A DNA stretch of 64,000 bases from a virus (lineage: Duplodnaviria; Caudoviricetes), in IMG/VR virus record IMGVR_UViG_3300020045_001345, positions 13,920 through 77,919 of that record. The stretch is one strand, 5' to 3'. Below the pieces are notes generated by a model that was not told the origin of the DNA, made no database searches, and saw nothing but the letters and a program-made list of their open reading frames with translations. Below are positions 2-63,340 of the stretch, in pieces (the first letter of the stretch is position 1; the number at the start of each line of letters is the position of its first letter). The position numbers were made by a program, and so were the translations under genes.

Positions 2-70
2 AAAATTTTATGTGATAGTGTGAATGCACAGGGGAATCGTTTAACTACGTTTGAGGCTGATTCGGTATGA
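2..70 (+). pseudogene. 3' end of an ORF entering from outside the window; resembles the N-terminus of the other (Thy1-like) phage ThyX family, cut short
   Basis: Reads KILCDSVNAQGNRLTTFEADSV*, similar to the recalled 'AKIIADS.S..G.RITTFE' start of phage Thy1-like proteins. The stop overlaps the HNH start (ATGA at 67-70). The start codon is off-window. Confidence 0.4.
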
Positions 71-612
71 AATGGGAAAGTCATTTCTACTACGCTCCAG
101 AGATTCCAAACGGCCTAAGGTGGGTAAGAGCGGCATCAAATAATAGACTTAAGGCAGGAGATCCCGCTGGTAGTAAGAAATTCGACAAAGGAAAATATTA
201 CTACCAACTAAAGTTAGGGTATAATAACTGTCAAAATCATAGAATAGTTTGGGAAATGTTCAATGGAGAAATTCCTGAAGGTTTTGTAGTAGATCATATT
301 GACGGAAATCCAAGCAATAACACAATAGAAAATCTGAGAGTTTGCACAAACCAAGAGAATGCCTATAACTCTAAGAAGTCAAAATTAAATAAGTCAGGAA
401 TTTCTGGAATAAGTATTAAAGATAATGGGACAGGTACACTTTACGTTACTGCACAATGGAATTATAGTGGTAAACGATGTTGCAAAAACTTCTCAATAGC
501 TAAGTATGGGTATGACATAGCTTTTGAACTGGCTGTTGCTGCCAGAAATGCTGCACTTAAAACAATTCAAGAAACTGGTATAAACATTCACGAAGGGCAC
601 GGAAAACGATGA
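67..612 (+). CDS. Free-standing HNH homing endonuclease
   Basis: HRIVWEMFNG...VVDHIDGNPSNNTIENLR..T..EN HNH motif; C-terminal AP2-like DNA-binding region. Confidence 0.9.
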   Translation: MKWESHFYYAPEIPNGLRWVRAASNNRLKAGDPAGSKKFDKGKYYYQLKLGYNNCQNHRIVWEMFNGEIPEGFVVDHIDGNPSNNTIENLRVCTNQENAYNSKKSKLNKSGISGISIKDNGTGTLYVTAQWNYSGKRCCKNFSIAKYGYDIAFELAVAARNAALKTIQETGINIHEGHGKR

Positions 613-16086: not shown

Positions 16087-16969
16087 GAACAATTGGAAGC
16101 AACAGGCAGTGGCTTTGATGAATACTAACACGTTATCGTGGAGAGAAATTGCTAGGGTGTTGGATAAAAGTCATAGTACGGTATCAGATTACTTGCGGAA
16201 GCAGTGTAGTATTGACGGAGAATATCAAGAGGTTAAGAAGGAGTTTGAGGGGAGTTTGTTTGTGAGTGGTGTTAATACACGTGATGATACACCTAAACAC
16301 GATAACTCTCGCATTCTAGTGCTATCAGACCTTCATGCACCTTATCATCATCCAGACACATTGAAATTTATTGACATGCTGCACAACCGCTACGCTTTCA
16401 CAAGGGTTATCTCGGTTGGGGATGAGCAAGATATATCAGCTAGTAGTTTTCATGACCACGATGTAGATATGCTAAGTGCTGGACATGAACTAAAAGAGGC
16501 TCAAAAGTTTATGAAAGAACTTGAGAGTCGATTTCCGGTAATGGATATCATGTCAAGCAACCACGGTGATTTATATTACCGCAAGGCTAAACACCATGGC
16601 ATACCTCTACATGTTATTAAGAGCTATAATGATGTGTTGTGTGTTGGTAAGGGTTGGAAGTGGCACAATGACCTAGTAATAGACCTGCCTACAGGAGAAC
16701 AAGTTTACTTCTGTCATGGGAAGAGTCAAAATGGTTTGAAACTCTCTCAGAATATGAGCATGAATTGTGTTCAAGGTCACTATCACAACTCTTTTAATAT
16801 CCAATATTGGAGCAGCCCACGAGCTTTATATTGGAGTATGCAAGTGGGGTGTCTTGTAGATGATAAGAGCTTGGCAATGAGTTATAATAAGCTTACTGTT
16901 AATAGGCCTATCATTGGGTGTGGTGTTATTATTGAAGGTATTCCTCAGTTGGAGGCTATGCCGTTATGA
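16079..16969 (+). CDS. Calcineurin-like metallophosphoesterase with N-terminal HTH
   Basis: SDLH, GDE, SNHG, CHG, GHYH motifs; LSWREIARVLDKSHSTVSDYL HTH. TTG at 16079 preferred over the track start at 15968. Confidence 0.85.
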   Translation: MSKNNWKQQAVALMNTNTLSWREIARVLDKSHSTVSDYLRKQCSIDGEYQEVKKEFEGSLFVSGVNTRDDTPKHDNSRILVLSDLHAPYHHPDTLKFIDMLHNRYAFTRVISVGDEQDISASSFHDHDVDMLSAGHELKEAQKFMKELESRFPVMDIMSSNHGDLYYRKAKHHGIPLHVIKSYNDVLCVGKGWKWHNDLVIDLPTGEQVYFCHGKSQNGLKLSQNMSMNCVQGHYHNSFNIQYWSSPRALYWSMQVGCLVDDKSLAMSYNKLTVNRPIIGCGVIIEGIPQLEAMPL

Positions 16970-17553
16970 TTGTAGACGACTTTAAGAATTCAAAAGGGTT
17001 GTGGGTAAAAGAAGTCGCTAAAACTGGTAATATCCGTAACTTTACTAGATCAGCTATATTTTATTGGAATATGATGTCACGGTGTGTTAAGGGTGGGAGT
17101 CAACAGGTTAAAAGACCTCGTTATGCGGGTGTGGAGTGTCTATTTAAAGATTTTCAAGAGTTCGCAGAATGGTGCCAATACCAAGTAGGATATTACACAA
17201 ATGGTTTTCAATTAGATAAAGATTTATTATCAGAAAACTCAAAAATATATTCTCCAGAAACTTGTGTGTTTATACCAATACAACTTAATACGTTACTAAT
17301 TAAAAGAGATTCAGATAGAGGTGAATATCCAGTTGGGGTGTGCGCCGCCAACAATAATTTTATGGCTCAATGTTCAGTAGGTAAAAATAGGCAGGAATAT
17401 CTAGGTGTTTTTGCAACACCTGAAGGAGCATTTCAAGCCTACAAAACTTTTAAAGAGGGTTTTGTCAAACAACAAGCTAATAAGTGGAAAGAACAAATCG
17501 ACCCGAGAGCTTATCAAGCTTTAATGGATTACGAAGTTCTTATAACTGATTGA
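16966..17553 (+). CDS. Free-standing homing endonuclease (HNH-like/AP2 type)
   Basis: W.NMM.RC, F..FAEWC, QLDKDLL....K.YSPETCVF+P..LN; paralog of 62747..63340. Confidence 0.85.
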   Translation: MIVDDFKNSKGLWVKEVAKTGNIRNFTRSAIFYWNMMSRCVKGGSQQVKRPRYAGVECLFKDFQEFAEWCQYQVGYYTNGFQLDKDLLSENSKIYSPETCVFIPIQLNTLLIKRDSDRGEYPVGVCAANNNFMAQCSVGKNRQEYLGVFATPEGAFQAYKTFKEGFVKQQANKWKEQIDPRAYQALMDYEVLITD

Positions 17554-35271: not shown

Positions 35272-36009
35272 CTAATTGGTGATTGCTGGTGGTTCTAATA
35301 TCAAGGTAGCAATTCTTGATAATAATACTGGTAAATTCACTTCATAGAAGCATTCTGTATAACCTGCAAACTTATTCTCGTATTGCTTATGAGTTGTTCG
35401 TAGTTGTTTGAGAAGTAAGCTCTCGATATTCTTAATCTTAGTACCTGAGTCTCTAACTGTGTAAATTACCTTAAAAGCTTTTCCACTATCATTTCTTACT
35501 GCTGATAATCTTTTACCTATTTTGGAATTAGTAATACCAACTTTAGTAATTTCACCATCACTGAAGACATATAGAATACCTTCTTTAGCTGTCTTGTATC
35601 CTCCGCCTTCTGAACACATCTGACAACCAGAACCTCCGTTACACAAGAGTTCTCTAGGTATTTTTACAAAATCACCATGTATTTGACAGGTCAGTGTTAC
35701 TTCTGTCCAAGAGTTTTTGTAGATAATTTTATCGTAGTTGTATGTATCATTTCCAACAAGTTTCTTGTGTTTAGCTACAAGTTCTTCTTTATTACTAGAA
35801 TACAAATTACTCATACGCTCACATCGGCATTTTGAACAACCTACACCTCTCATGTGATGATTTGGCGTTACTGAAAATATCCCGTGTTCCTTGCATAATA
35901 TATCTACTTTGATATGAGAAAACTCGTAATTAGTTGGGGAATAGTCGTAGAGGTTATTGTGTGTTTCTTCTGAACGTCTAATAAACTCTTGTTGTGTTAA
36001 TTTCTTCAT
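35272..36009 (-). CDS. Free-standing homing endonuclease (Zn-ribbon repeats plus GIY-YIG/T5orf172-like C-terminus)
   Basis: EFI......H...YDYS, C..HG.F...P..H..G.GC..C repeats; ILY....G.ITKVGITN...R. ATG at 36009; the track extension overlaps the tube gene. Confidence 0.8.
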   Translation of the reverse strand: MKKLTQQEFIRRSEETHNNLYDYSPTNYEFSHIKVDILCKEHGIFSVTPNHHMRGVGCSKCRCERMSNLYSSNKEELVAKHKKLVGNDTYNYDKIIYKNSWTEVTLTCQIHGDFVKIPRELLCNGGSGCQMCSEGGGYKTAKEGILYVFSDGEITKVGITNSKIGKRLSAVRNDSGKAFKVIYTVRDSGTKIKNIESLLLKQLRTTHKQYENKFAGYTECFYEVNLPVLLSRIATLILEPPAITN

Positions 36010-36012
36010 ATT

Positions 36013-36036
36013 AAAAGACAGGGGATTTCTCCCCTG
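36013..36036 (-). terminator. Intrinsic terminator after the major tail gene
   Basis: CAGGGGA-GAAA-TCCCCTG-TCTTTT. Confidence 0.85.
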
Positions 36037-36043
36037 CATTACC

Positions 36044-36478
36044 TTAATATACCGGACTGTCAATCTCAATGTTGGCTGTTCCGCCAACGATGGAATCAAC
36101 ACTACCAATTTTCTTAACGAAACTCACAACTTGACAAGTGAAATAAGATGTAGTACCATCATTTTCAACGATACGCATTGCATAGCTTAAATCAGAATCG
36201 GAAGCTGTCTTGAGAATAATCTGACCAGCATCGCTTGTTTGACTAGCAAACTCAAAGCTCATAGTACCAGCATCATAGGAACCCTTCAGTTTACGAACAT
36301 TCCGGTCACCAATTGGACTATGTTTAACTACATTGTATGTTTTACCAAAGTCACCAATTGATACAACTTCACCAATTGGTGTGTAAGTTTTTGCAGACAA
36401 AGTGGACAGATCAACTGTACCAACCATTGCCACTGCTGCGATAGATACTGTAGTACCTGCTGCTGAATGAATAGCCAT
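36044..36478 (-). CDS. Major tail tube protein
   Basis: AGTT+SI, IGEV.SIG.FG, RK.KGS.DAG, D.GQ..L; siphovirus tube pattern. Confidence 0.85.
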   Translation of the reverse strand: MAIHSAAGTTVSIAAVAMVGTVDLSTLSAKTYTPIGEVVSIGDFGKTYNVVKHSPIGDRNVRKLKGSYDAGTMSFEFASQTSDAGQIILKTASDSDLSYAMRIVENDGTTSYFTCQVVSFVKKIGSVDSIVGGTANIEIDSPVY

Positions 36479-44816: not shown

Positions 44817-45263
44817 TTAGTACCCTGTGTATGGAAGTGTAGCACTAGGTGCTGCTAGAGCATCAAGAGCTAACTGCTGGCTTTGAGTACCATTAGAGTA
44901 GTTGTTGTTCCAGTCCTCCGTGAACTTGATCAAAGGATTAACATCTGTAGAACTACCGCTATAAGGGATAGGACTAATATCCATCATAAAGGCGGGGTTT
45001 GTGAAAGTTAATAATAAGAATTGTTGGTAGTTTTTGAAGGCTTGTTCACCGTATATCTCTATCTGCGATAGCTTCCTGTGCGTCTTGTGAGCCAGCATTC
45101 CAAGAAGGTATGATGCTATGATCTTGGCGGTGCGTATCAGATTGTTATCATTATCTGCTAGTGTCTGAGTGTATACTGAATCGGGGAGGAATGGGATGTC
45201 ACCATAATCAGCCACCCTCAAACGCAGCTTACCTAAATTTGTTGTAGGATCAATATGTGCCAT
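44817..45263 (-). CDS. Head-tail adaptor protein
   Basis: DP.T..GKLRL..AD...+.FL.D..Y; first structural gene after the capsid and endonuclease genes. Confidence 0.7.
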   Translation of the reverse strand: MAHIDPTTNLGKLRLRVADYGDIPFLPDSVYTQTLADNDNNLIRTAKIIASYLLGMLAHKTHRKLSQIEIYGEQAFKNYQQFLLLTFTNPAFMMDISPIPYSGSSTDVNPLIKFTEDWNNNYSNGTQSQQLALDALAAPSATLPYTGY

Positions 45264-46200
45264 TCTTTTCCTTTTGTATAGTTATTAGTTCTTCTACTTT
45301 TGATAGGAGAGATTGGTAATCTACTGACAAGAAGCATTCTGAGGAACCTTCAAATTTTGCTTTAGGTTGCTCGTAGAGAGTTCTTAAATATCTCAGGGCT
45401 TCTGTTTCTACAGCATCTGGAATAGAGCCATCCTCGAAGTGATATTCTTTTAGGACTATGAATTCTGCTCCGAAGCTTCTGGATATAGTGTTAGCCCGTA
45501 GTTCAACAGAAATATTGGTAATTCCTACTTTAGTAATATCACCGGACTTTAAAATATATAGTATTCCTGCTTTGTTTGGGCTATATCCTGTCTTTCTACA
45601 GCTCGCACAACCAGAACCACTCATGTGATTTGCAGCAGATTGCATAAAATATCCAGAGTGGTTCTTACAAAATATCTTTACTTTATTGCAAGCACAGACA
45701 TACTCTACAGACTCATAAGAGTAATTACCTTTGTGAACTTCGTTCGATCTACTTACAAACTCTTCTTTAGTTAGTCTGTTAGCACTCTCTATTCTTTCTT
45801 TAGCACACAGAGGACAGCCTTTACCACTAAGATGATTTATAGGTTTCTGTAGAAAATATTCAGAGTGCTTGTTACACCATATCTTTACTAGAACATGCGT
45901 TCCAACATATTCAACAGCATGATAAGAGTATCTTTCACCTTGGGCTTTTGTCGCCCTGTCCACAAATTTTTCATGTGTTAAAGTATTACCCGTAGACACA
46001 GATTCATACCTACATATAGGACATCCTCTGCCGCTCATGTGTGATGCTGCCGATTGTGAAAACTCTAAAGTATGCTTATTACAAATAATGATGACATGAC
46101 CTGTATTTCTTGTGTACTCTGCTTTAGAGTAATTATACTTATCGCCATGTTTCAATATCGAATTTTCTATAAATTCATCTGTTGTCAATCTCTTAGACAT
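45250..46200 (-). CDS. Free-standing homing endonuclease (3 Zn-ribbon repeats plus GIY-YIG/T5orf172-like C-terminus)
   Basis: Three F+.....HG..Y.Y...C.KH...F.Q....H.SG.GC..C repeats; AGILYILKSGDITKVGITN; paralog of 35272..36009. Confidence 0.8.
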   Translation of the reverse strand: MSKRLTTDEFIENSILKHGDKYNYSKAEYTRNTGHVIIICNKHTLEFSQSAASHMSGRGCPICRYESVSTGNTLTHEKFVDRATKAQGERYSYHAVEYVGTHVLVKIWCNKHSEYFLQKPINHLSGKGCPLCAKERIESANRLTKEEFVSRSNEVHKGNYSYESVEYVCACNKVKIFCKNHSGYFMQSAANHMSGSGCASCRKTGYSPNKAGILYILKSGDITKVGITNISVELRANTISRSFGAEFIVLKEYHFEDGSIPDAVETEALRYLRTLYEQPKAKFEGSSECFLSVDYQSLLSKVEELITIQKEKNGTY

Positions 46201-51483: not shown

Positions 51484-53156
51484 TTAAGGTACTGAAGGTA
51501 CGGGGCTAGATTGTGTTATTGGCGTTATTGAGAAGATTGGCATAGATTGTGACTTCATACAAGTATTAGCTGCGTCTGAAGTAGCATCCACAGGATCATC
51601 AAATCCACCGCGTCTACCTGTAAAATCCTCTAAGCAGGCAATATACCAGTTGTTCCATTCACCAGCCAACATGGAGCAATTGCCTGATTCACATAAACTT
51701 GAGAAAGGGCTGAATCGTGCCACTTTACCAGAGTGTCCAGACATCACACTAGATTGTGTAGGTATCCCATTCTCTGCTAAAACTTTACGGTAATAGGCGT
51801 GTGCTACAGATCCACCAGCTCCTGAGTCTTTTGGTAACACAATTTTTACATCAGCGCCATCTTCAATAGCAATTGCTATAATTTGCTTCAATACGCCATC
51901 TGGTCTGTCTCTAAATTTATATGCATCTAAGATATAGTAGTGGCCTGTTACTTTACCTTTACCAACTTTTACTCCGCAAGTCCAATCGGGATTAGGATTT
52001 GACTCAGAAGGGACAGTTGCAGCTAAGTCGTATCCACGCACAATAACAGACAGTTCCTCTGGGATTTCATTTACGATTGGAACCCAAGCACTTCTCCAAA
52101 GTTGGCTAGCTTCTTCTTTAGCATGCCAGCTTCCTAGATACAGGCGCTCTCTCTCAGTACGTTTAAGATTCTCAAGCCTCTCTACATAAGCAGGGTTTAG
52201 CACCTTCATAATAGGGTTATCACGGACAGTTGCACTGATATACGTGTATGTCTGGGGTTTTATTCCGTCACCATATGTAGCAATAAGCTCTTCTTTAGTG
52301 TCTGCAATAACAGTTACACCACCCCAAGTAGCATAATACCTCTCAATTCCTGACAGCTCTGGTTTAGGGATTCCTGTTTCAAGGTCGAGATATGGTTTTA
52401 CGAACTGGTAAAGATAGCAGGTCATGCTAGGGTTAGCGGTTGCAATTAATTGGTGTGGAGCTTTTGCTTTAGACCTTATGCGAGATTCTAGGTACTTTAT
52501 TTGAACATCAGAATGCCATTGAGCCTCATCGAAGATGATTAGGGATGCCTGTAATCCGTCAAAATTATTAATATCCCTGTCATGCTGGCACACTTTAAAT
52601 TGTACTTGTGCGCCAGAGGGGAATGTTGCAGTCATTTGAGGGTGAGATTTAAATTCAGCTCCAAATTGCCTCCACATACTCTGTGCTTCCATAAACAAGC
52701 CTCCTGCCTGTGAAAGCTGTGTGCTTGTTTGTCTTATGAAAACTGCCCTAAAATTAGGGTCGTTAATATACTTCAATATTAACATCAATGCTTGGTGTGA
52801 CTTGCCAGCCGGATATTCAAGTAAGTTCGTGAGGCTTACCCCGCAATTAAGCTGCTATACCTTCATATATACGTATAGAGTTGACTATATCATCATCCCA
52901 GTAGGATGCCTTCCGTTTCCACTCACTTGAGTGTACGAGCTTTCGCTCTAGTCGATGAACGTTCGCCTATAGGCGCTTCGCTGCTGATAACCCGCTAGGG
53001 CTTCCCAGTCAATTAAAAAGGTTTGCTCTACAGATTGCTCTGCAGAGGGGCATAGCAATTTTACCCTGCACCACCACCAAAGATCACGAACGAACTCTTG
53101 CAATTCAAGAACATCCTATGTGCTTCTGAGGCGGGTGATAATTTTATTTTACTCAT
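51484..53156 (-). CDS. terL: Terminase large subunit, two exons: 53156-53063 joined to 52808-51484 (472 aa)
   Basis: The spliced junction restores Walker A VIFGGGAG-S-GKS; Walker B LIIFDEAQ, coupling motif ATANP, nuclease RGYDLA and FDDPVDA. Confidence 0.92.
52809..53062 (-). ncRNA. Group I self-splicing intron (254 nt, no internal ORF)
   Basis: 5' exon ends in U pairing with G of the IGS (GGGU/GCCC); terminal G at 52809; P AAUUGACUGGGAAG (53014-53001), Q UAUCAGCAG (52989-52981), R GUUCAUCGACUAGA (52960-52947), S GAUAUAGUC (52891-52883); P2 CUCUGCAGA-GCAA-UCUGUAGAG; P8 CAUCC/GGAUG. Confidence 0.92.
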
Positions 53157-53409: not shown

Positions 53410-53482
53410 TGGAGCAGCCTGACGGATTTGAACCGTCTTCTTAACCTTGGAAGGGTTAGCCCTATCCCAGTAGGAAGGCTGC
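53410..53482 (-). tRNA. tRNA-Gly(UCC), 73 nt, encoded CCA, atypical D arm
   Basis: Acceptor GCAGCCT/AGGCTGC-T-CCA; anticodon stem TAACC/GGTTA with loop CT-TCC-AA; T arm GACGG-TTCAAAT-CCGTC. Confidence 0.85.
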
Positions 53483-53701: not shown

Positions 53702-53778
53702 TGGTGGAGCTGGTAAGATTTGAACTTACGACAATAAGCCTTGTGGACTTTGGTTCTACCAGACTGAACTACAGCTCC
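53702..53778 (-). tRNA. tRNA-like gene (77 nt) with degenerate anticodon arm; isotype undetermined
   Basis: Acceptor GGAGCTG/CAGCTCC-A-CCA; D arm GTTC-AGTCTGGTA-GAAC; T arm GTAAG-TTCAAAT-CTTAC; anticodon loop CC-ACA-AG lacks U33. Confidence 0.75.
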
Positions 53779-55988: not shown

Positions 55989-56735
55989 TTGAGCCATAAT
56001 GCATCGCGTACAAGAAAACGTAAAGTAAGAGAGGAAGTAAAGCCTCCAATTAAAAAAGTGTTTTTAGAAAAAGCTAGAGAAGTTGTTCTAGCAAAGGCTA
56101 TATACCCACTGAATGATAGACAGGAGGAATATTTTCAAGCACTGAAAGAGAAAGACCTTGTAGTGGCAACTGGTCTTGCAGGAAGTAGTAAAACATTTGT
56201 AGCTTGCTGTTTTGCTGCCGATGCCTACACACTTGGAGTAATAAACAAAATTGTACTTGCACGACCAGCTATGTCGGAATCTAAGAGCCTAGGTTTTAAC
56301 AAAGGAGATTTGAATGACAAGATGAAACAGTGGGTAATGCCTATGTTGTCCGTGCTATACATGAGAATGGGTAAAGTTGTTGTAGATATGGCAATTGAGG
56401 AAGGTAATATTCAACTACAACCACTGGAATCTATCAAAGGTATGAGTTTCGGGAAACAAACATGGGTGATTGCTGATGAAGTAGAGGATTGTTCAATTGC
56501 TGAAATCAAATCTATCATTACTCGTAATGGCGGTGCAAAGATGACTTTGTGCGGAGATGTTACTCAGTCTTGTTTGAAAGAACACAGTGGTCTTAAGGTA
56601 TTGCAAGATTTGATAAGAGGAGATAAACGTTTGCAAGACTCTGCAGCATTGATTGACTTTGATGAATATGATCACATTGTACGTAGTAAATTGTGCAAAG
56701 ATTTTATTATTGCTTTTGATAAGGCTGGATATTGA
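55989..56735 (+). CDS. phoH: PhoH-like ATPase
   Basis: P.N.RQ.EY, GLAGSSKT, RP......LGF..GDL..K, +KGMSF, IADE, GD..QS. Confidence 0.92.
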   Translation: MSHNASRTRKRKVREEVKPPIKKVFLEKAREVVLAKAIYPLNDRQEEYFQALKEKDLVVATGLAGSSKTFVACCFAADAYTLGVINKIVLARPAMSESKSLGFNKGDLNDKMKQWVMPMLSVLYMRMGKVVVDMAIEEGNIQLQPLESIKGMSFGKQTWVIADEVEDCSIAEIKSIITRNGGAKMTLCGDVTQSCLKEHSGLKVLQDLIRGDKRLQDSAALIDFDEYDHIVRSKLCKDFIIAFDKAGY

Positions 56736-56736
56736 T

Positions 56737-57273
56737 ATGATTTCTCCAGAAAATGAATTAAAAATAAATAGCCCCTTAAATAAAGTCAGGAGAGCTTGGA
56801 GAGATATAAAATCAAGATGTTATAAAGAGACTCATAAAGAGTATAAAAGATATGGAGGAAGGGGGATAACTATACAAAATTCTTGGCTAAGTAATTCAAA
56901 AGGTTTCTGTAATTATGTAATGAGTCTCCCAGACTTTGATCTTAAATATAGCTTAGATAGAATCGACAATAATAAAGGTTATGAAGAAGGTAATCTTAGG
57001 TGGGCTAGTGATGCACAGCAAACTAGAAATCAAGGAAAGCAATCTAACAACACATCAGGTGTTTGTGGTGTAACTTGGTATTTTAATAGGACAGGAGGGA
57101 CTCGTGCTATTGCTTGGTGGTATGATTTAGATGGAAAACCAAAGAGTAAATCGTTTCCAGAGAAGAAGTTTGGTCTGCTCCCAGCTTTTAAAATGGCTGC
57201 AGAGCACAGAAAAAGTATGATTAAAGAACTAAATAGACAGGGTGCAGGATACTCTGAAACACACGGAAACTAA
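56737..57273 (+). CDS. Free-standing HNH homing endonuclease
   Basis: W..+K.RCY....Y.RYGGRGI, SLDRIDNNKGYE.GNLRWA...Q.RN; C-terminal GAGYSETHG. Confidence 0.88.
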   Translation: MISPENELKINSPLNKVRRAWRDIKSRCYKETHKEYKRYGGRGITIQNSWLSNSKGFCNYVMSLPDFDLKYSLDRIDNNKGYEEGNLRWASDAQQTRNQGKQSNNTSGVCGVTWYFNRTGGTRAIAWWYDLDGKPKSKSFPEKKFGLLPAFKMAAEHRKSMIKELNRQGAGYSETHGN

Positions 57274-58850: not shown

Positions 58851-58868
58851 TATTTGTGCATATTAACA
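58825..58868 (+). promoter_or_regulatory. Putative sigma70 promoter with inverted repeat over the -10 box
   Basis: TTGACA-17-TGnTAATAT; arms TGTTAATAT 58845-58853 and ATATTAACA 58860-58868. Confidence 0.65.
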
Positions 58869-58883
58869 AACAAGGAGCAAACT

Positions 58884-59426
58884 ATGGTTGATTGGAATGA
58901 ATTGTTTTATTATGACGAAACGAGTCCTAGCTGTTTGAGATGGAAAGTTGACCGTTACAGTGGGAGGTATTATAGCATATTAGAAGCGTCAGCTGGAGAT
59001 ATTGCTGGCGGGGTTACAAGTGAAGATTATTGGAAAGTACGTTGTTGTGGTTCTAAGAATTTCGCCCACAGGATTGTTTATACTTTAAAATTTGGTGTTA
59101 TTCCAGATAATATGCAGATTGACCACATTGATGGTAATAGGTTAAATAACAAAATTTCAAATTTAAGAGCTATTAGTAAACTTGTCAACTCACGAAACAA
59201 GAAAAGTGAATCTAGGAACACTTCTGGTTTCGTTGGTGTATATAGAACTAGGAGTTATTGGACAGCAAGTTGGTATTGCGCCACAACTTTAAAACAAAAG
59301 ACCAGAAACTTTTGTACTTTGAAGTATGGGGAGGACTTGGCTTTTGATAAAGCTATTGCTTATAGAGTTGCAATGATATTCAAACAGAATATGTTAGGGC
59401 AGGGTACACAGAACGACACATATTAG
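58884..59426 (+). CDS. Free-standing HNH homing endonuclease
   Basis: AHRIVY...G.IP..MQIDHIDGNRLNNKISNLR; paralog of 67..612. Confidence 0.9.
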   Translation: MVDWNELFYYDETSPSCLRWKVDRYSGRYYSILEASAGDIAGGVTSEDYWKVRCCGSKNFAHRIVYTLKFGVIPDNMQIDHIDGNRLNNKISNLRAISKLVNSRNKKSESRNTSGFVGVYRTRSYWTASWYCATTLKQKTRNFCTLKYGEDLAFDKAIAYRVAMIFKQNMLGQGTQNDTY

Positions 59427-62551: not shown

Positions 62552-62754
62552 TGGCTACTAAACGTCACAATTATGGAGCAGGGAGCAATGCAGGCATACT
62601 AGGTGCTTGTTTGGCTATGACATTCTGGAAGTGGATATTATTAATATTGTTTATTGTCTGGGTGCCAGCTTGGGTATGGATTGTATTGTTAGTTGCTGTG
62701 ACAGTGTTTGGAATATTTTATGCTATTTACAGTGAGGAGAAGAAGCATGAGTAA
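62551..62754 (+). CDS. Small membrane protein
   Basis: Long hydrophobic Trp-rich segment. Confidence 0.7.
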   Translation: MATKRHNYGAGSNAGILGACLAMTFWKWILLILFIVWVPAWVWIVLLVAVTVFGIFYAIYSEEKKHE

Positions 62755-63340
62755 GAAGCTTGTGTATGGTGCAGGTATTTATGATAAGGGTGAGTTTGCT
62801 GGATCTGAAAAGGTTGGTAACAAGTGGGTAGCGACTAAAGAATATGTCTTGTGGAATAATATGCTGAAACGCTGCTGTTCAGAAAAATTCCAACTAAAAC
62901 GCCCTACATATGATGGGTGTTATTCATCTGATAATTTTAAGAACTTTCAACTATTTGCAGAATGGTGTCAGAGTCAGACAGGGTTTAAGATGAAAGATTA
63001 CCACTTAGATAAGGATATGCTTATTAATGGTAATAAATGTTATAGTGAGGACAATTGTGTATTTGTACCGAGACAACTAAACATCTTTCTGACAAATATG
63101 AGGAGTGACCAAGGAAATTGCCCGGTGGGCGTTAGTTTCCATAAAAGAGACAAGCATTACCGAGCAATGATGTGTATAAAAGGGAAGAGTACATACCTAG
63201 GCTACTACAGCACACCAGAAGAAGCATTCAATGTCTACAAAACAGCTAAAGAAGCTCGAGCTAAAGAACTAGCAATAGAATATGCAGGGCTTGTAGACCC
63301 CAGAGTGATTGACGCTCTTAACAGGTATGTTGTAGAGTAA
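62747..63340 (+). CDS. Free-standing homing endonuclease (HNH-like/AP2 type)
   Basis: VYG.GI, W.NML.RC, NFQ.FAEWC, LDKDML..GNK.YS...CVFVP..LN; ATG at 62747. Confidence 0.87.
   Translation: MSKKLVYGAGIYDKGEFAGSEKVGNKWVATKEYVLWNNMLKRCCSEKFQLKRPTYDGCYSSDNFKNFQLFAEWCQSQTGFKMKDYHLDKDMLINGNKCYSEDNCVFVPRQLNIFLTNMRSDQGNCPVGVSFHKRDKHYRAMMCIKGKSTYLGYYSTPEEAFNVYKTAKEARAKELAIEYAGLVDPRVIDALNRYVVE

Follow-up and report, generated by a model that had tools for sequence, protein, structure and literature searches.

The terL locus

The stretch of DNA considered here (the window) comprises 64,000 nucleotides (nt) of the IMG/VR virus record IMGVR_UViG_3300020045_001345, and the gene in question is terL, which codes for the large terminase and lies on the minus strand; coordinates are positions in the window unless a relative is named. 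In this gene, a segment of 254 nt lies within the codons of the Walker A motif (P-loop) and separates a short first exon from the rest of the coding sequence:

53063 to 53156, minus strand: terL exon 1, 94 nt (31 codons and the first base of a Ser codon)
53167 to 53162, minus strand: ribosome-binding site AAGGAG of terL, upstream of ATG 53156
52809 to 53062, minus strand: group I intron without an open reading frame (ORF), IA-like, 254 nt, RF00028, terminal G at 52809
51484 to 52808, minus strand: terL exon 2, 1325 nt with the stop codon included, Terminase_6N and Terminase_6C

From the ATG at 53156, the exon 1 frame runs for 31 codons (MSKIKLSPASEAHRMFLNCKSSFVIFGGGAG), ends in FGGGAG and is then closed by an in-frame UAA composed of U(-1), A1, and A2, i.e., the stop codon straddles the 5' splice site exactly. 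The terL ORF proposed by the gene caller begins only at 52788 (MMLILKY...); it contains the Terminase_6N and Terminase_6C domains and lacks the glycine-rich P-loop. Exon 2 starts at 52808 with CUGGCAAG, reading CU GGC AAG UCA, that is, (S)GKS. Excision of 53062 to 52809 joins GGG U to CU GGC AAG across the predicted junction GGGU/CUGGCAAG, which gives GGGAG-S-GKSHQALMLILKY and renders the Walker A motif continuous (GGAGSGKS). The predicted spliced terL reads FGGGAG-S-GKSHQAL, and its 94 plus 1325 nt amount to 472 codons and a stop.

The same motif is uninterrupted in L004, an IMG/VR relative whose terL is 57% identical and whose locus gave no Rfam intron match. This relative reads FVIFGGGAGSGKSHQALMLILKY without interruption, the stretch ...FLNCKSNFVIFGGGAGSGKSHQALMLILKY... 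of its terL is exactly the predicted spliced product, Ser included, and its FGGGAGSGKSHQAL is exactly restored by removing the window intron. The spliced P-loop sequence of the window is the same as in the intronless alleles found in L004 and in 35 relatives from IMG/VR, and because of this comparison with intronless DNA the insertion point cannot slide. The sole other in-frame option, a junction one base earlier (exon 1 ending in GGG and the intron in G 52810), was rejected: it would produce Ala and not Ser, position -1 would not be U, the U.G pair of P1 would be lost, and the residue here is Ser or Cys in the closest relatives. Exon 1 is collinear with the N-termini of the intronless relatives and of the terL of Felix O1-type phages, which are the nearest cultured relatives by terL (about 42% protein identity) and remain collinear through GGAAGAGKT. 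Megablast with the terL region as query gave no match among 50,697 phage records.

The segment has been recognized by the Rfam model RF00028 (Intron_gpI), which matches 53073 to 52862 (minus strand) over its full length (model positions 1–253) with 62.2 bits (E = 2.2e-13), against a gathering score of 50 bits. The region is accounted for by no other Rfam family, and the nearby matches to mir-145 and Plastid-ycf2 were far under their cut-offs. Inside the 254 nt, the ORF list of the window has no endonuclease-sized ORF and none with a plausible start. All coordinates and sequence statements of the initial annotation (ATG at 53156, 94-nt exon, TAA, intron at 53062–52809, U/CT join, and product of 472 amino acids (aa)) hold, and so do its claims that excision restores Walker A and that no endonuclease is encoded. 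A covariance-model search and a comparison with the terL of intronless relatives, both of which it had named as checks, are answered by the RF00028 match and by the collinearity of exon 1.

Fold of the intron and its covariation

Helices were mapped by hand, and all of them, from P1 to P10, are fully paired with standard pairs in the window sequence. With intron positions numbered 1–254 (window position = 53063 minus n), the elements are the following:

53048 to 53058, minus strand: internal guide sequence UUGCUAUGCCC, forming P1 and P10
53052 to 53048 with exon/intron GGGUA 53066 to 53062, minus strand: P1, GGGUA/UGCCC (intron 11–15 with exon GGGU and A1)
53058 to 53053 with exon 2 UGGCAA 52807 to 52802, minus strand: P10, 6 base pairs (intron 5–10 UUGCUA with exon +2 to +7)
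53026 to 53047, minus strand: P2, 9-base-pair hairpin with GCAA loop (intron 16–37)
53021 to 53016 with 52914 to 52909, minus strand: P3 (intron 42–47 with 149–154)
53011 to 52959, minus strand: P4-P5-P6-P6a domain (intron 52–104)
52953 to 52949 with 52887 to 52883, minus strand: P7, GACUA (110–114) with UAGUC (176–180)
52948 to 52937, minus strand: P7.1, GAGC-GAAA-GCUC (intron 115–126)
52933 to 52920, minus strand: P7.2, CACUC-AAGU-GAGUG (intron 130–143)
52908 to 52894, minus strand: P8, followed by J8/7 (intron 155–169)
52883 to 52953, minus strand: catalytic core from P7 through J8/7, by helix mapping and covariation
52878 to 52855, minus strand: P9 (intron 185–208), within the peripheral 3' domain (52820 to 52878)
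52840 to 52820, minus strand: P9.2 (intron 223–243), in the same peripheral domain
52809, minus strand: terminal G (intron 254)

The splice-site pair of P1 is U53063.G53051, and the U.G pair, P7, the GCAA-capped P2, and the terminal G that the initial annotation had listed as core elements are all found in the mapped fold. P7 and the 3' strand of P3 are separated by two extra helices, P7.1 and P7.2, and both covary. This pair of helices is the defining feature of subgroup IA, and the window intron appears to belong with the IA introns typical of phages (IA-like); the finer label in the Michel-Westhof scheme would presumably be IA2.

Covariation was assessed in a MAFFT alignment of the window intron and six related introns of relatives, on which the structure derived by hand was counted, with P10 and the pseudoknot of P3 and P7 as part of it. 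In this alignment of seven introns, 82% of the cells pair, versus 36–46% when the 3' partners are slid by 1–3 columns; 37 of the 74 pairs show changes on both sides, and the observed covariation measures were reached in 0 of 500 shuffles. P3 (with four covarying pairs), P6, and P7 (with one compensatory switch from U-A to C-G) are 100% paired, and P6a, P7.2, P8, and P9.2 are 95–98% paired. Covarying pairs number four of four in P6a, four of five in P7.2, and five of six in P9.2, and the changes in P3, P6a, P7.1, P7.2, and P9.2 are nearly all compensatory. The low percentages of P1, P2, P5, P9, and P10 are MAFFT register errors in the other six introns, and for these helices the sequences were inspected one by one, by eye and by script. 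P2 forms a perfect hairpin in every intron, with a different sequence each time, and equivalents are closed by GUAA or GUGA loops in L009, L013, L019, L067, L077, and L010. Among the introns inserted at the same site as that of the window (site 19, see below), the guide strand of P1 covaries with synonymous changes at the third position of a Gly codon: the exon/guide pairs are GGAU/GUCC in L009, L019, and L067, GGGU/GCCC in the window, and GGUU/GACC in L013. Since P1 follows the Gly wobble base, the 5' splice site is directly supported by comparison. These patterns point to selection on the intron fold. Chance is excluded by the covariance-model score together with the exact restoration of a conserved motif and the covariation, and the segment 53062 to 52809 is almost certainly a genuine and functional group I intron that lacks an endonuclease and resides in the Walker A codons of terL.

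Introns in the P-loop of related terL genes

A search with exon 2 against 5.8 billion proteins retrieved 349 homologues at E < 1e-30, and about one third of the best-scoring 120 of these start at or just after the P-loop, like the gene call of the window. Seven relatives with N-terminally truncated terL calls (L008–L014) all present an RF00028 match (66–94 bits) directly before the truncated ORF. A scan of IMG/VR for a terL pattern, blind to intron status, yielded 71 loci, of which about 65 were informative: the P-loop is uninterrupted in 35 and intron-bearing in 30 (about 46%), 25 of these introns having been solved automatically and five by inspection. Twenty loci were rescanned at the Rfam gathering threshold, and 13 P-loop introns and four further introns were found above the cut-off. 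The P-loop introns of the relatives are all ORF-less, with lengths of 224–301 nt. The initial annotation had considered a minimal intron inside the P-loop notable, which overstated the case: this position is common to nearly half of the clade and to the Vibrio phage ICP1, and the intron of the window is not unusual. More group I introns are present deeper in the terL of relatives, and probably also in their downstream genes (portal region). Such further introns were located at L037:2575-2794, L061:3639-3898, L063:2429-2703, and L067:5284-5491, and nhmmer matches were obtained at L044/L064:5440-5608, L045:3709-3893, L066:2761-2909, and L069:1567-1741 and in L076.

Junctions were placed with the rules that U precedes the 5' site, that the intron ends in G, and that the product is [FY]GGGAG[SC]GK[ST], counting positions from the F/Y codon. 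Four positions, all within 11 nt, were resolved:

after nt 9 (FGG/G): several loci
after nt 12 (FGGG/A): several loci
after nt 18: L077 only
after nt 19: the window, L009, L013, L019, and L067

In L058 (2195-2500) and L059 (2150-2500), no junction with both U at -1 and a terminal G was found. In L058, either the intron ends in A or position -1 is G, and in L059 the junction is at nt 15/16; either non-canonical splice sites or assembly errors are involved.

Two lineages of P-loop introns were seen. Lineage I is devoid of P2, occupies positions 9 and 12, and has the guide GCCUCC, which pairs with GGUGGU; these introns are inserted after the second or third GGU of the GGUGGUGGU repeat, with one guide re-used, and an extension of the helix covaries with the upstream codon (UUC/UUU/UAU/GGC). 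Lineage II has P2, forms a clade with a support of 0.97, and contains all the introns of sites 18 and 19 together with two of site 12 (L010 and L061). In the intron tree, insertion sites are mixed within lineages. In the terL tree (built with FastTree), close relatives differ in intron state, with none, 9, 12, and 19 interleaved. Grouped with the window (site 19) are L008 (site 12), L015 and L016 (none), and L009 (site 19); likewise, L019 (site 19), L018 (site 12), L021 (none), and L011 (site 12) are 87–91% identical in the nucleotides of exon 2. Such interleaving means that the introns have been gained, lost, or replaced frequently, which argues for mobility.

Unannotated introns have also been found in GenBank phages. 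In Acinetobacter phage YMC13/03/R2096 (L007, KM672662), terL has two RF00028 introns (2054-2323 and 2439-2661, 79 and 97 bits), the first directly after ...VYGG, and the mini-exon between them encodes ...GSAKTYGGLLRHLQYVNSPHY; the annotated terL is a fragment of 387 aa, and no placement of the first splice junction was found that gives a canonical Walker A. In Xanthomonas phage DES1 (L006, OK624832), a 100-bit group I intron (2459-2665) lies 13 aa after Walker A and is followed by a GIY-YIG-like ORF, terL being annotated as two proteins. Vibrio phage D181 (L005) has a 102-bit intron (2457-2664) just after a gene annotated as 'homing endonuclease'.

Free-standing endonucleases, inteins and the movement of the introns

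In many relatives, with or without an intron, an ORF of 205–420 aa ends right at the terL start codon. The Pfam domains of these ORFs (AP2; HNH_3 and AP2; NUMOD4 and HNH_3; DUF723/DUF4379/T5orf172 (MUG113)) are those of free-standing homing-endonuclease types, and the terL-adjacent homing-endonuclease genes (HEGs) form three main clusters. Three site-19 loci have a HEG beside terL (L009, L013, and L019), and in each of them it belongs to cluster 2; cluster 1 accompanies sites 9 and 12, and cluster 0 is mostly beside intronless terL. The association between HEG cluster and intron site is suggestive, but it involves few independent events and is confounded by shared ancestry. Intron-bearing relatives with an adjacent HEG include L010, L012, and L014, in addition to the three site-19 loci just named, and others. 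Upstream of the terL of L004 (2021-2891), a 208-aa ORF with repeated zinc-ribbon-like motifs (cluster 0, DUF723/T5orf172) is followed by a 67-aa ORF, and the two look like a truncated or split endonuclease gene.

As for the window, the initial annotation had counted eight free-standing endonucleases; at least seven HEG-like ORFs have been found, which is close to that figure:

67 to 612, plus strand: HEG-like ORF
16966 to 17553, plus strand: HEG-like ORF, of the cluster found beside site-19 introns
35272 to 36108, minus strand: HEG-like ORF
45250 to 46200, minus strand: HEG-like ORF
56653 to 57273, plus strand: HEG-like ORF
58854 to 59426, plus strand: HEG-like ORF
62708 to 63340, plus strand: HEG-like ORF, of the cluster found beside site-19 introns

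These ORFs are of HNH_3/AP2 or DUF723/T5orf172 types, show 31–46% identity to the terL-abutting endonucleases of the relatives, and include homologues of each of the three clusters; terL has none of them as a neighbour. Mobilization of the window intron in trans by one of these free-standing endonucleases, as the initial annotation had suggested, is plausible, and it would correspond to the collaborative homing described for other systems (PMC3984707; PMC10448857). The window intron is a member of a pool of small, related introns that are gained and lost in the P-loop DNA of this clade, and their spread would most likely be DNA-based, through double-strand-break repair after free-standing HEGs cut an intronless terL during co-infection. 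We infer, and favour, endonuclease-driven repair of this kind from a co-infecting donor, and the shifts between sites could be due to guide-directed reverse splicing or to slipped recombination on the GGT repeat.

A different route would dispense with endonuclease homing altogether, the intron RNA inserting itself by guide-directed reverse splicing, followed by reverse transcription and recombination. Several observations agree with it: the four positions are staggered within 11 nt with a guide that matches the local exon each time, the lineage I guide GCCUCC is found after the second or third GGU, as integration guided by RNA pairing predicts, and the intron tree mixes sites within lineages. 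However, slipped alignment in repair on the GGT repeat, with adaptation of the guide, gives an identical pattern, the loci examined showed no reverse transcriptase, HEG-like genes are abundant beside terL, and mobility by reverse splicing is without direct experimental support in bacteria (PMC3984707). We consider RNA-level movement unlikely as the main route, and repair driven by free-standing endonucleases remains the preferred explanation.

Introns are not the only elements that interrupt this motif. An intein is placed between GK and S/T in P0049, P0070, L041 (940-1010), and L063 (560-660), that is, 8 nt downstream of the intron site of the window. The intein relative P0049 has a LAGLIDADG_3 domain, L063 combines an intron with an intein 15 nt away, and in L075 (1090-1190) an intein may immediately precede SGKT. 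For mycobacteriophages, inteins at the P-loop of terL have been well documented (Kelley et al., 2016, PMC5050341). Like the window intron, they are selfish elements within the Walker A of terL, although they splice at the protein level and not at the RNA level; the window is without an intein.

Comparison with known systems

The closest precedent is the terL intron of ICP1, in which splicing from a short N-terminal exon has been shown by RNA sequencing and reverse-transcription PCR (Barth, Nguyen & Seed, 2023, PMC10448857). This intron is empty, a T5orf172 endonuclease gene is found beside the exon, and the authors have read the arrangement as collaborative homing; the location of the intron in Walker A goes unmentioned in their paper (PMC10448857). 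In the ICP1 record, exon 1 (ORF129, 33 aa) ends in ...CFYGGA and exon 2 begins with AGGGKSW, the ORF-less gap of about 250 nt between them matches RF00028 (42 bits, E = 3e-9) under the gathering score of 50, and a guide GGUACC pairs with the exon sequence GGUGCU. By our own reading of this record, the ICP1 intron would lie within the Walker A codons, at position 12. Thus ICP1 resembles the window in its broad terL type, in the shortness of its N-terminal exon, and in the placement of an ORF-less intron within the codons of Walker A. On the other hand, its intron site is 7 nt upstream of that of the window, the T5orf172 gene lies directly upstream of exon 1, where the window has only tRNA genes, and no nucleotide similarity between the two introns was detectable among the 30 matches listed for the window intron. 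Among the same 30 matches, the window intron core is 66–80% identical over about 140–200 nt to introns of Bacillus (phiNIT1 group), Staphylococcus, Vibrio, Xanthomonas, and Acinetobacter phages.

The IA introns of phages (T4 td, nrdB, and sunY, the SPO1-type DNA polymerase, and Twort orf142) share with the window intron the core, including P7.1 and P7.2, but they differ in host gene and site, and many of them have an endonuclease ORF in a peripheral loop. The orf142 introns of Twort are small and ORF-less, like that of the window. Collaborative homing has been described for the DNA polymerase intron of T3/phiI and for the psbA intron of cyanophage S-PM2 with F-CphI (PMC3984707). These systems also have an ORF-less intron in a conserved essential gene. 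A free-standing HEG directly beside the interrupted gene is seen in many relatives but not in the window. Group I introns in phage terL genes were known, as the initial annotation had stated. In Bastillevirinae they occur in five of 52 genomes, with self-splicing shown (PMC11878797), and they have also been found in Shewanella phages including KASIA (PMC8541194), besides ICP1 (PMC10448857), and are covered in a review (PMC3984707). In the Bastillevirinae and KASIA, splicing restores the terL frame, and some genes have two or three introns (PMC11878797; PMC8541194), second introns being present in relatives of the window too. Those introns, however, are mostly long (mean of about 800 nt) and encode endonucleases, and the window intron does neither.

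Predicted splicing of the window intron

The intron would be transcribed within the terL pre-mRNA, and the guide near its 5' end would pair first with the end of exon 1 (P1, with the U.G pair at the cleavage site) and then with the start of exon 2 (P10). A guanosine-initiated, two-step transesterification would remove the 254 nt and ligate the exons, which would generate UCU for Ser and an unbroken Walker A (GGAGSGKS) in the 472-aa large terminase. Unspliced RNA yields only a 31-aa peptide and a fragment without the P-loop, so packaging would depend on splicing.

Some observations weigh against the view that this is an active intron moved by endonucleases. Splicing in this phage is deduced from its DNA sequence. 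The window intron scores 62 bits, versus 66–97 for the introns of relatives at the gathering threshold, and it is the most divergent member, being at most 61% identical to any other. Its single-sequence minimum-free-energy (MFE) fold is not significantly better than those of shuffled sequences (z = -1.7), which is expected because the ribozyme is pseudoknotted and an MFE fold cannot represent P3/P7; it was not used as evidence. The window terL has no adjoining endonuclease gene, the upstream genes being two tRNA genes and a 111-aa ORF, and across the loci no association was found between an adjacent HEG and the presence of an intron (roughly 60% versus 55%).

The low score, which is the lowest among the site-19 introns, and the long branch would also be expected of a decayed relic that no longer splices, with terL as a pseudogene in a defective or mis-assembled genome; the source is indeed a metagenome assembly, with an estimated completeness of 91%. 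Nevertheless, no core helix is damaged, with P1 and P10 as well as the U.G pair and the terminal G in place, the differences from the relatives are compensatory and not disruptive, and exon 2 and the portal gene (the packaging and head genes examined beside terL) are open and conserved, as is exon 1. Decay of the element is thus very improbable, and a functional intron is the reading retained here.

The portal gene is downstream of terL in the window. Of the tRNA-like genes directly upstream (53702-53778 and 53410-53482), ARAGORN has called one as Cys with the anticodon ACA and the other as Gly (UCC); the one called Cys(ACA) obtains 53.9 bits with Rfam, yet its anticodon loop is odd. Relatives have tRNA gene arrays upstream of terL, with as many as seven or more genes.

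The exact overlap of the UAA with the 5' splice site bears on whether the functional intron also acts as a switch that would permit packaging only when the level of guanosine triphosphate (GTP) or the state of translation allows splicing, an addition to the explanation above and not a substitute for it. Ribosomes would leave the RNA exactly at P1, and the splicing of T4 introns is affected by translation. A regulatory role has been proposed for the introns in terL, polymerase, and ribonucleotide reductase genes of Bastillevirinae, some of which are spliced at a late stage of infection (PMC11878797). The window sequence, however, shows no feature specific to regulation, and 35 of the roughly 65 informative relatives are without a P-loop intron, with close relatives differing in this respect, i.e., the intron is dispensable for the life cycle; such a switch seems quite improbable. 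Both functional ideas of the initial annotation had already been published for other phages, namely collaborative homing (PMC3984707; PMC10448857) and a splicing or packaging switch tied to GTP or growth state (PMC11878797).

Significance

The window intron is of a known kind and, taken singly, ordinary; the hot spot of staggered sites across the clade is the more interesting part. For annotation, gene callers truncate the terL of the window and about one third of its best 120 homologues, and recognition of the intron restores a complete terminase, the covariation between exon and guide marking each splice site. What makes the context useful is that a large and patchily distributed set of tiny introns, inteins, and free-standing HEGs converges on one stretch of a dozen bases in an essential ATPase motif. 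Tentatively, the 11 nt that encode GGGAGS may be regarded as a battleground in this clade of freshwater phages, in which two lineages of ORF-less introns would have been re-targeted repeatedly among at least four positions by means of changed or re-used guides, with inteins in the next codons and three HEG families at the terL start. The clade offers a tractable system in which collaborative homing can be set against guide-directed transposition, and in which the protection that an intron gives against the endonuclease of a competitor can be addressed. If the switches between sites are guide-directed, or if they stem from an arms race, with an intron at one site shielding the gene from an endonuclease that cuts at another, these phages would constitute an unusually rich natural data set on the movement of introns without an endonuclease of their own.

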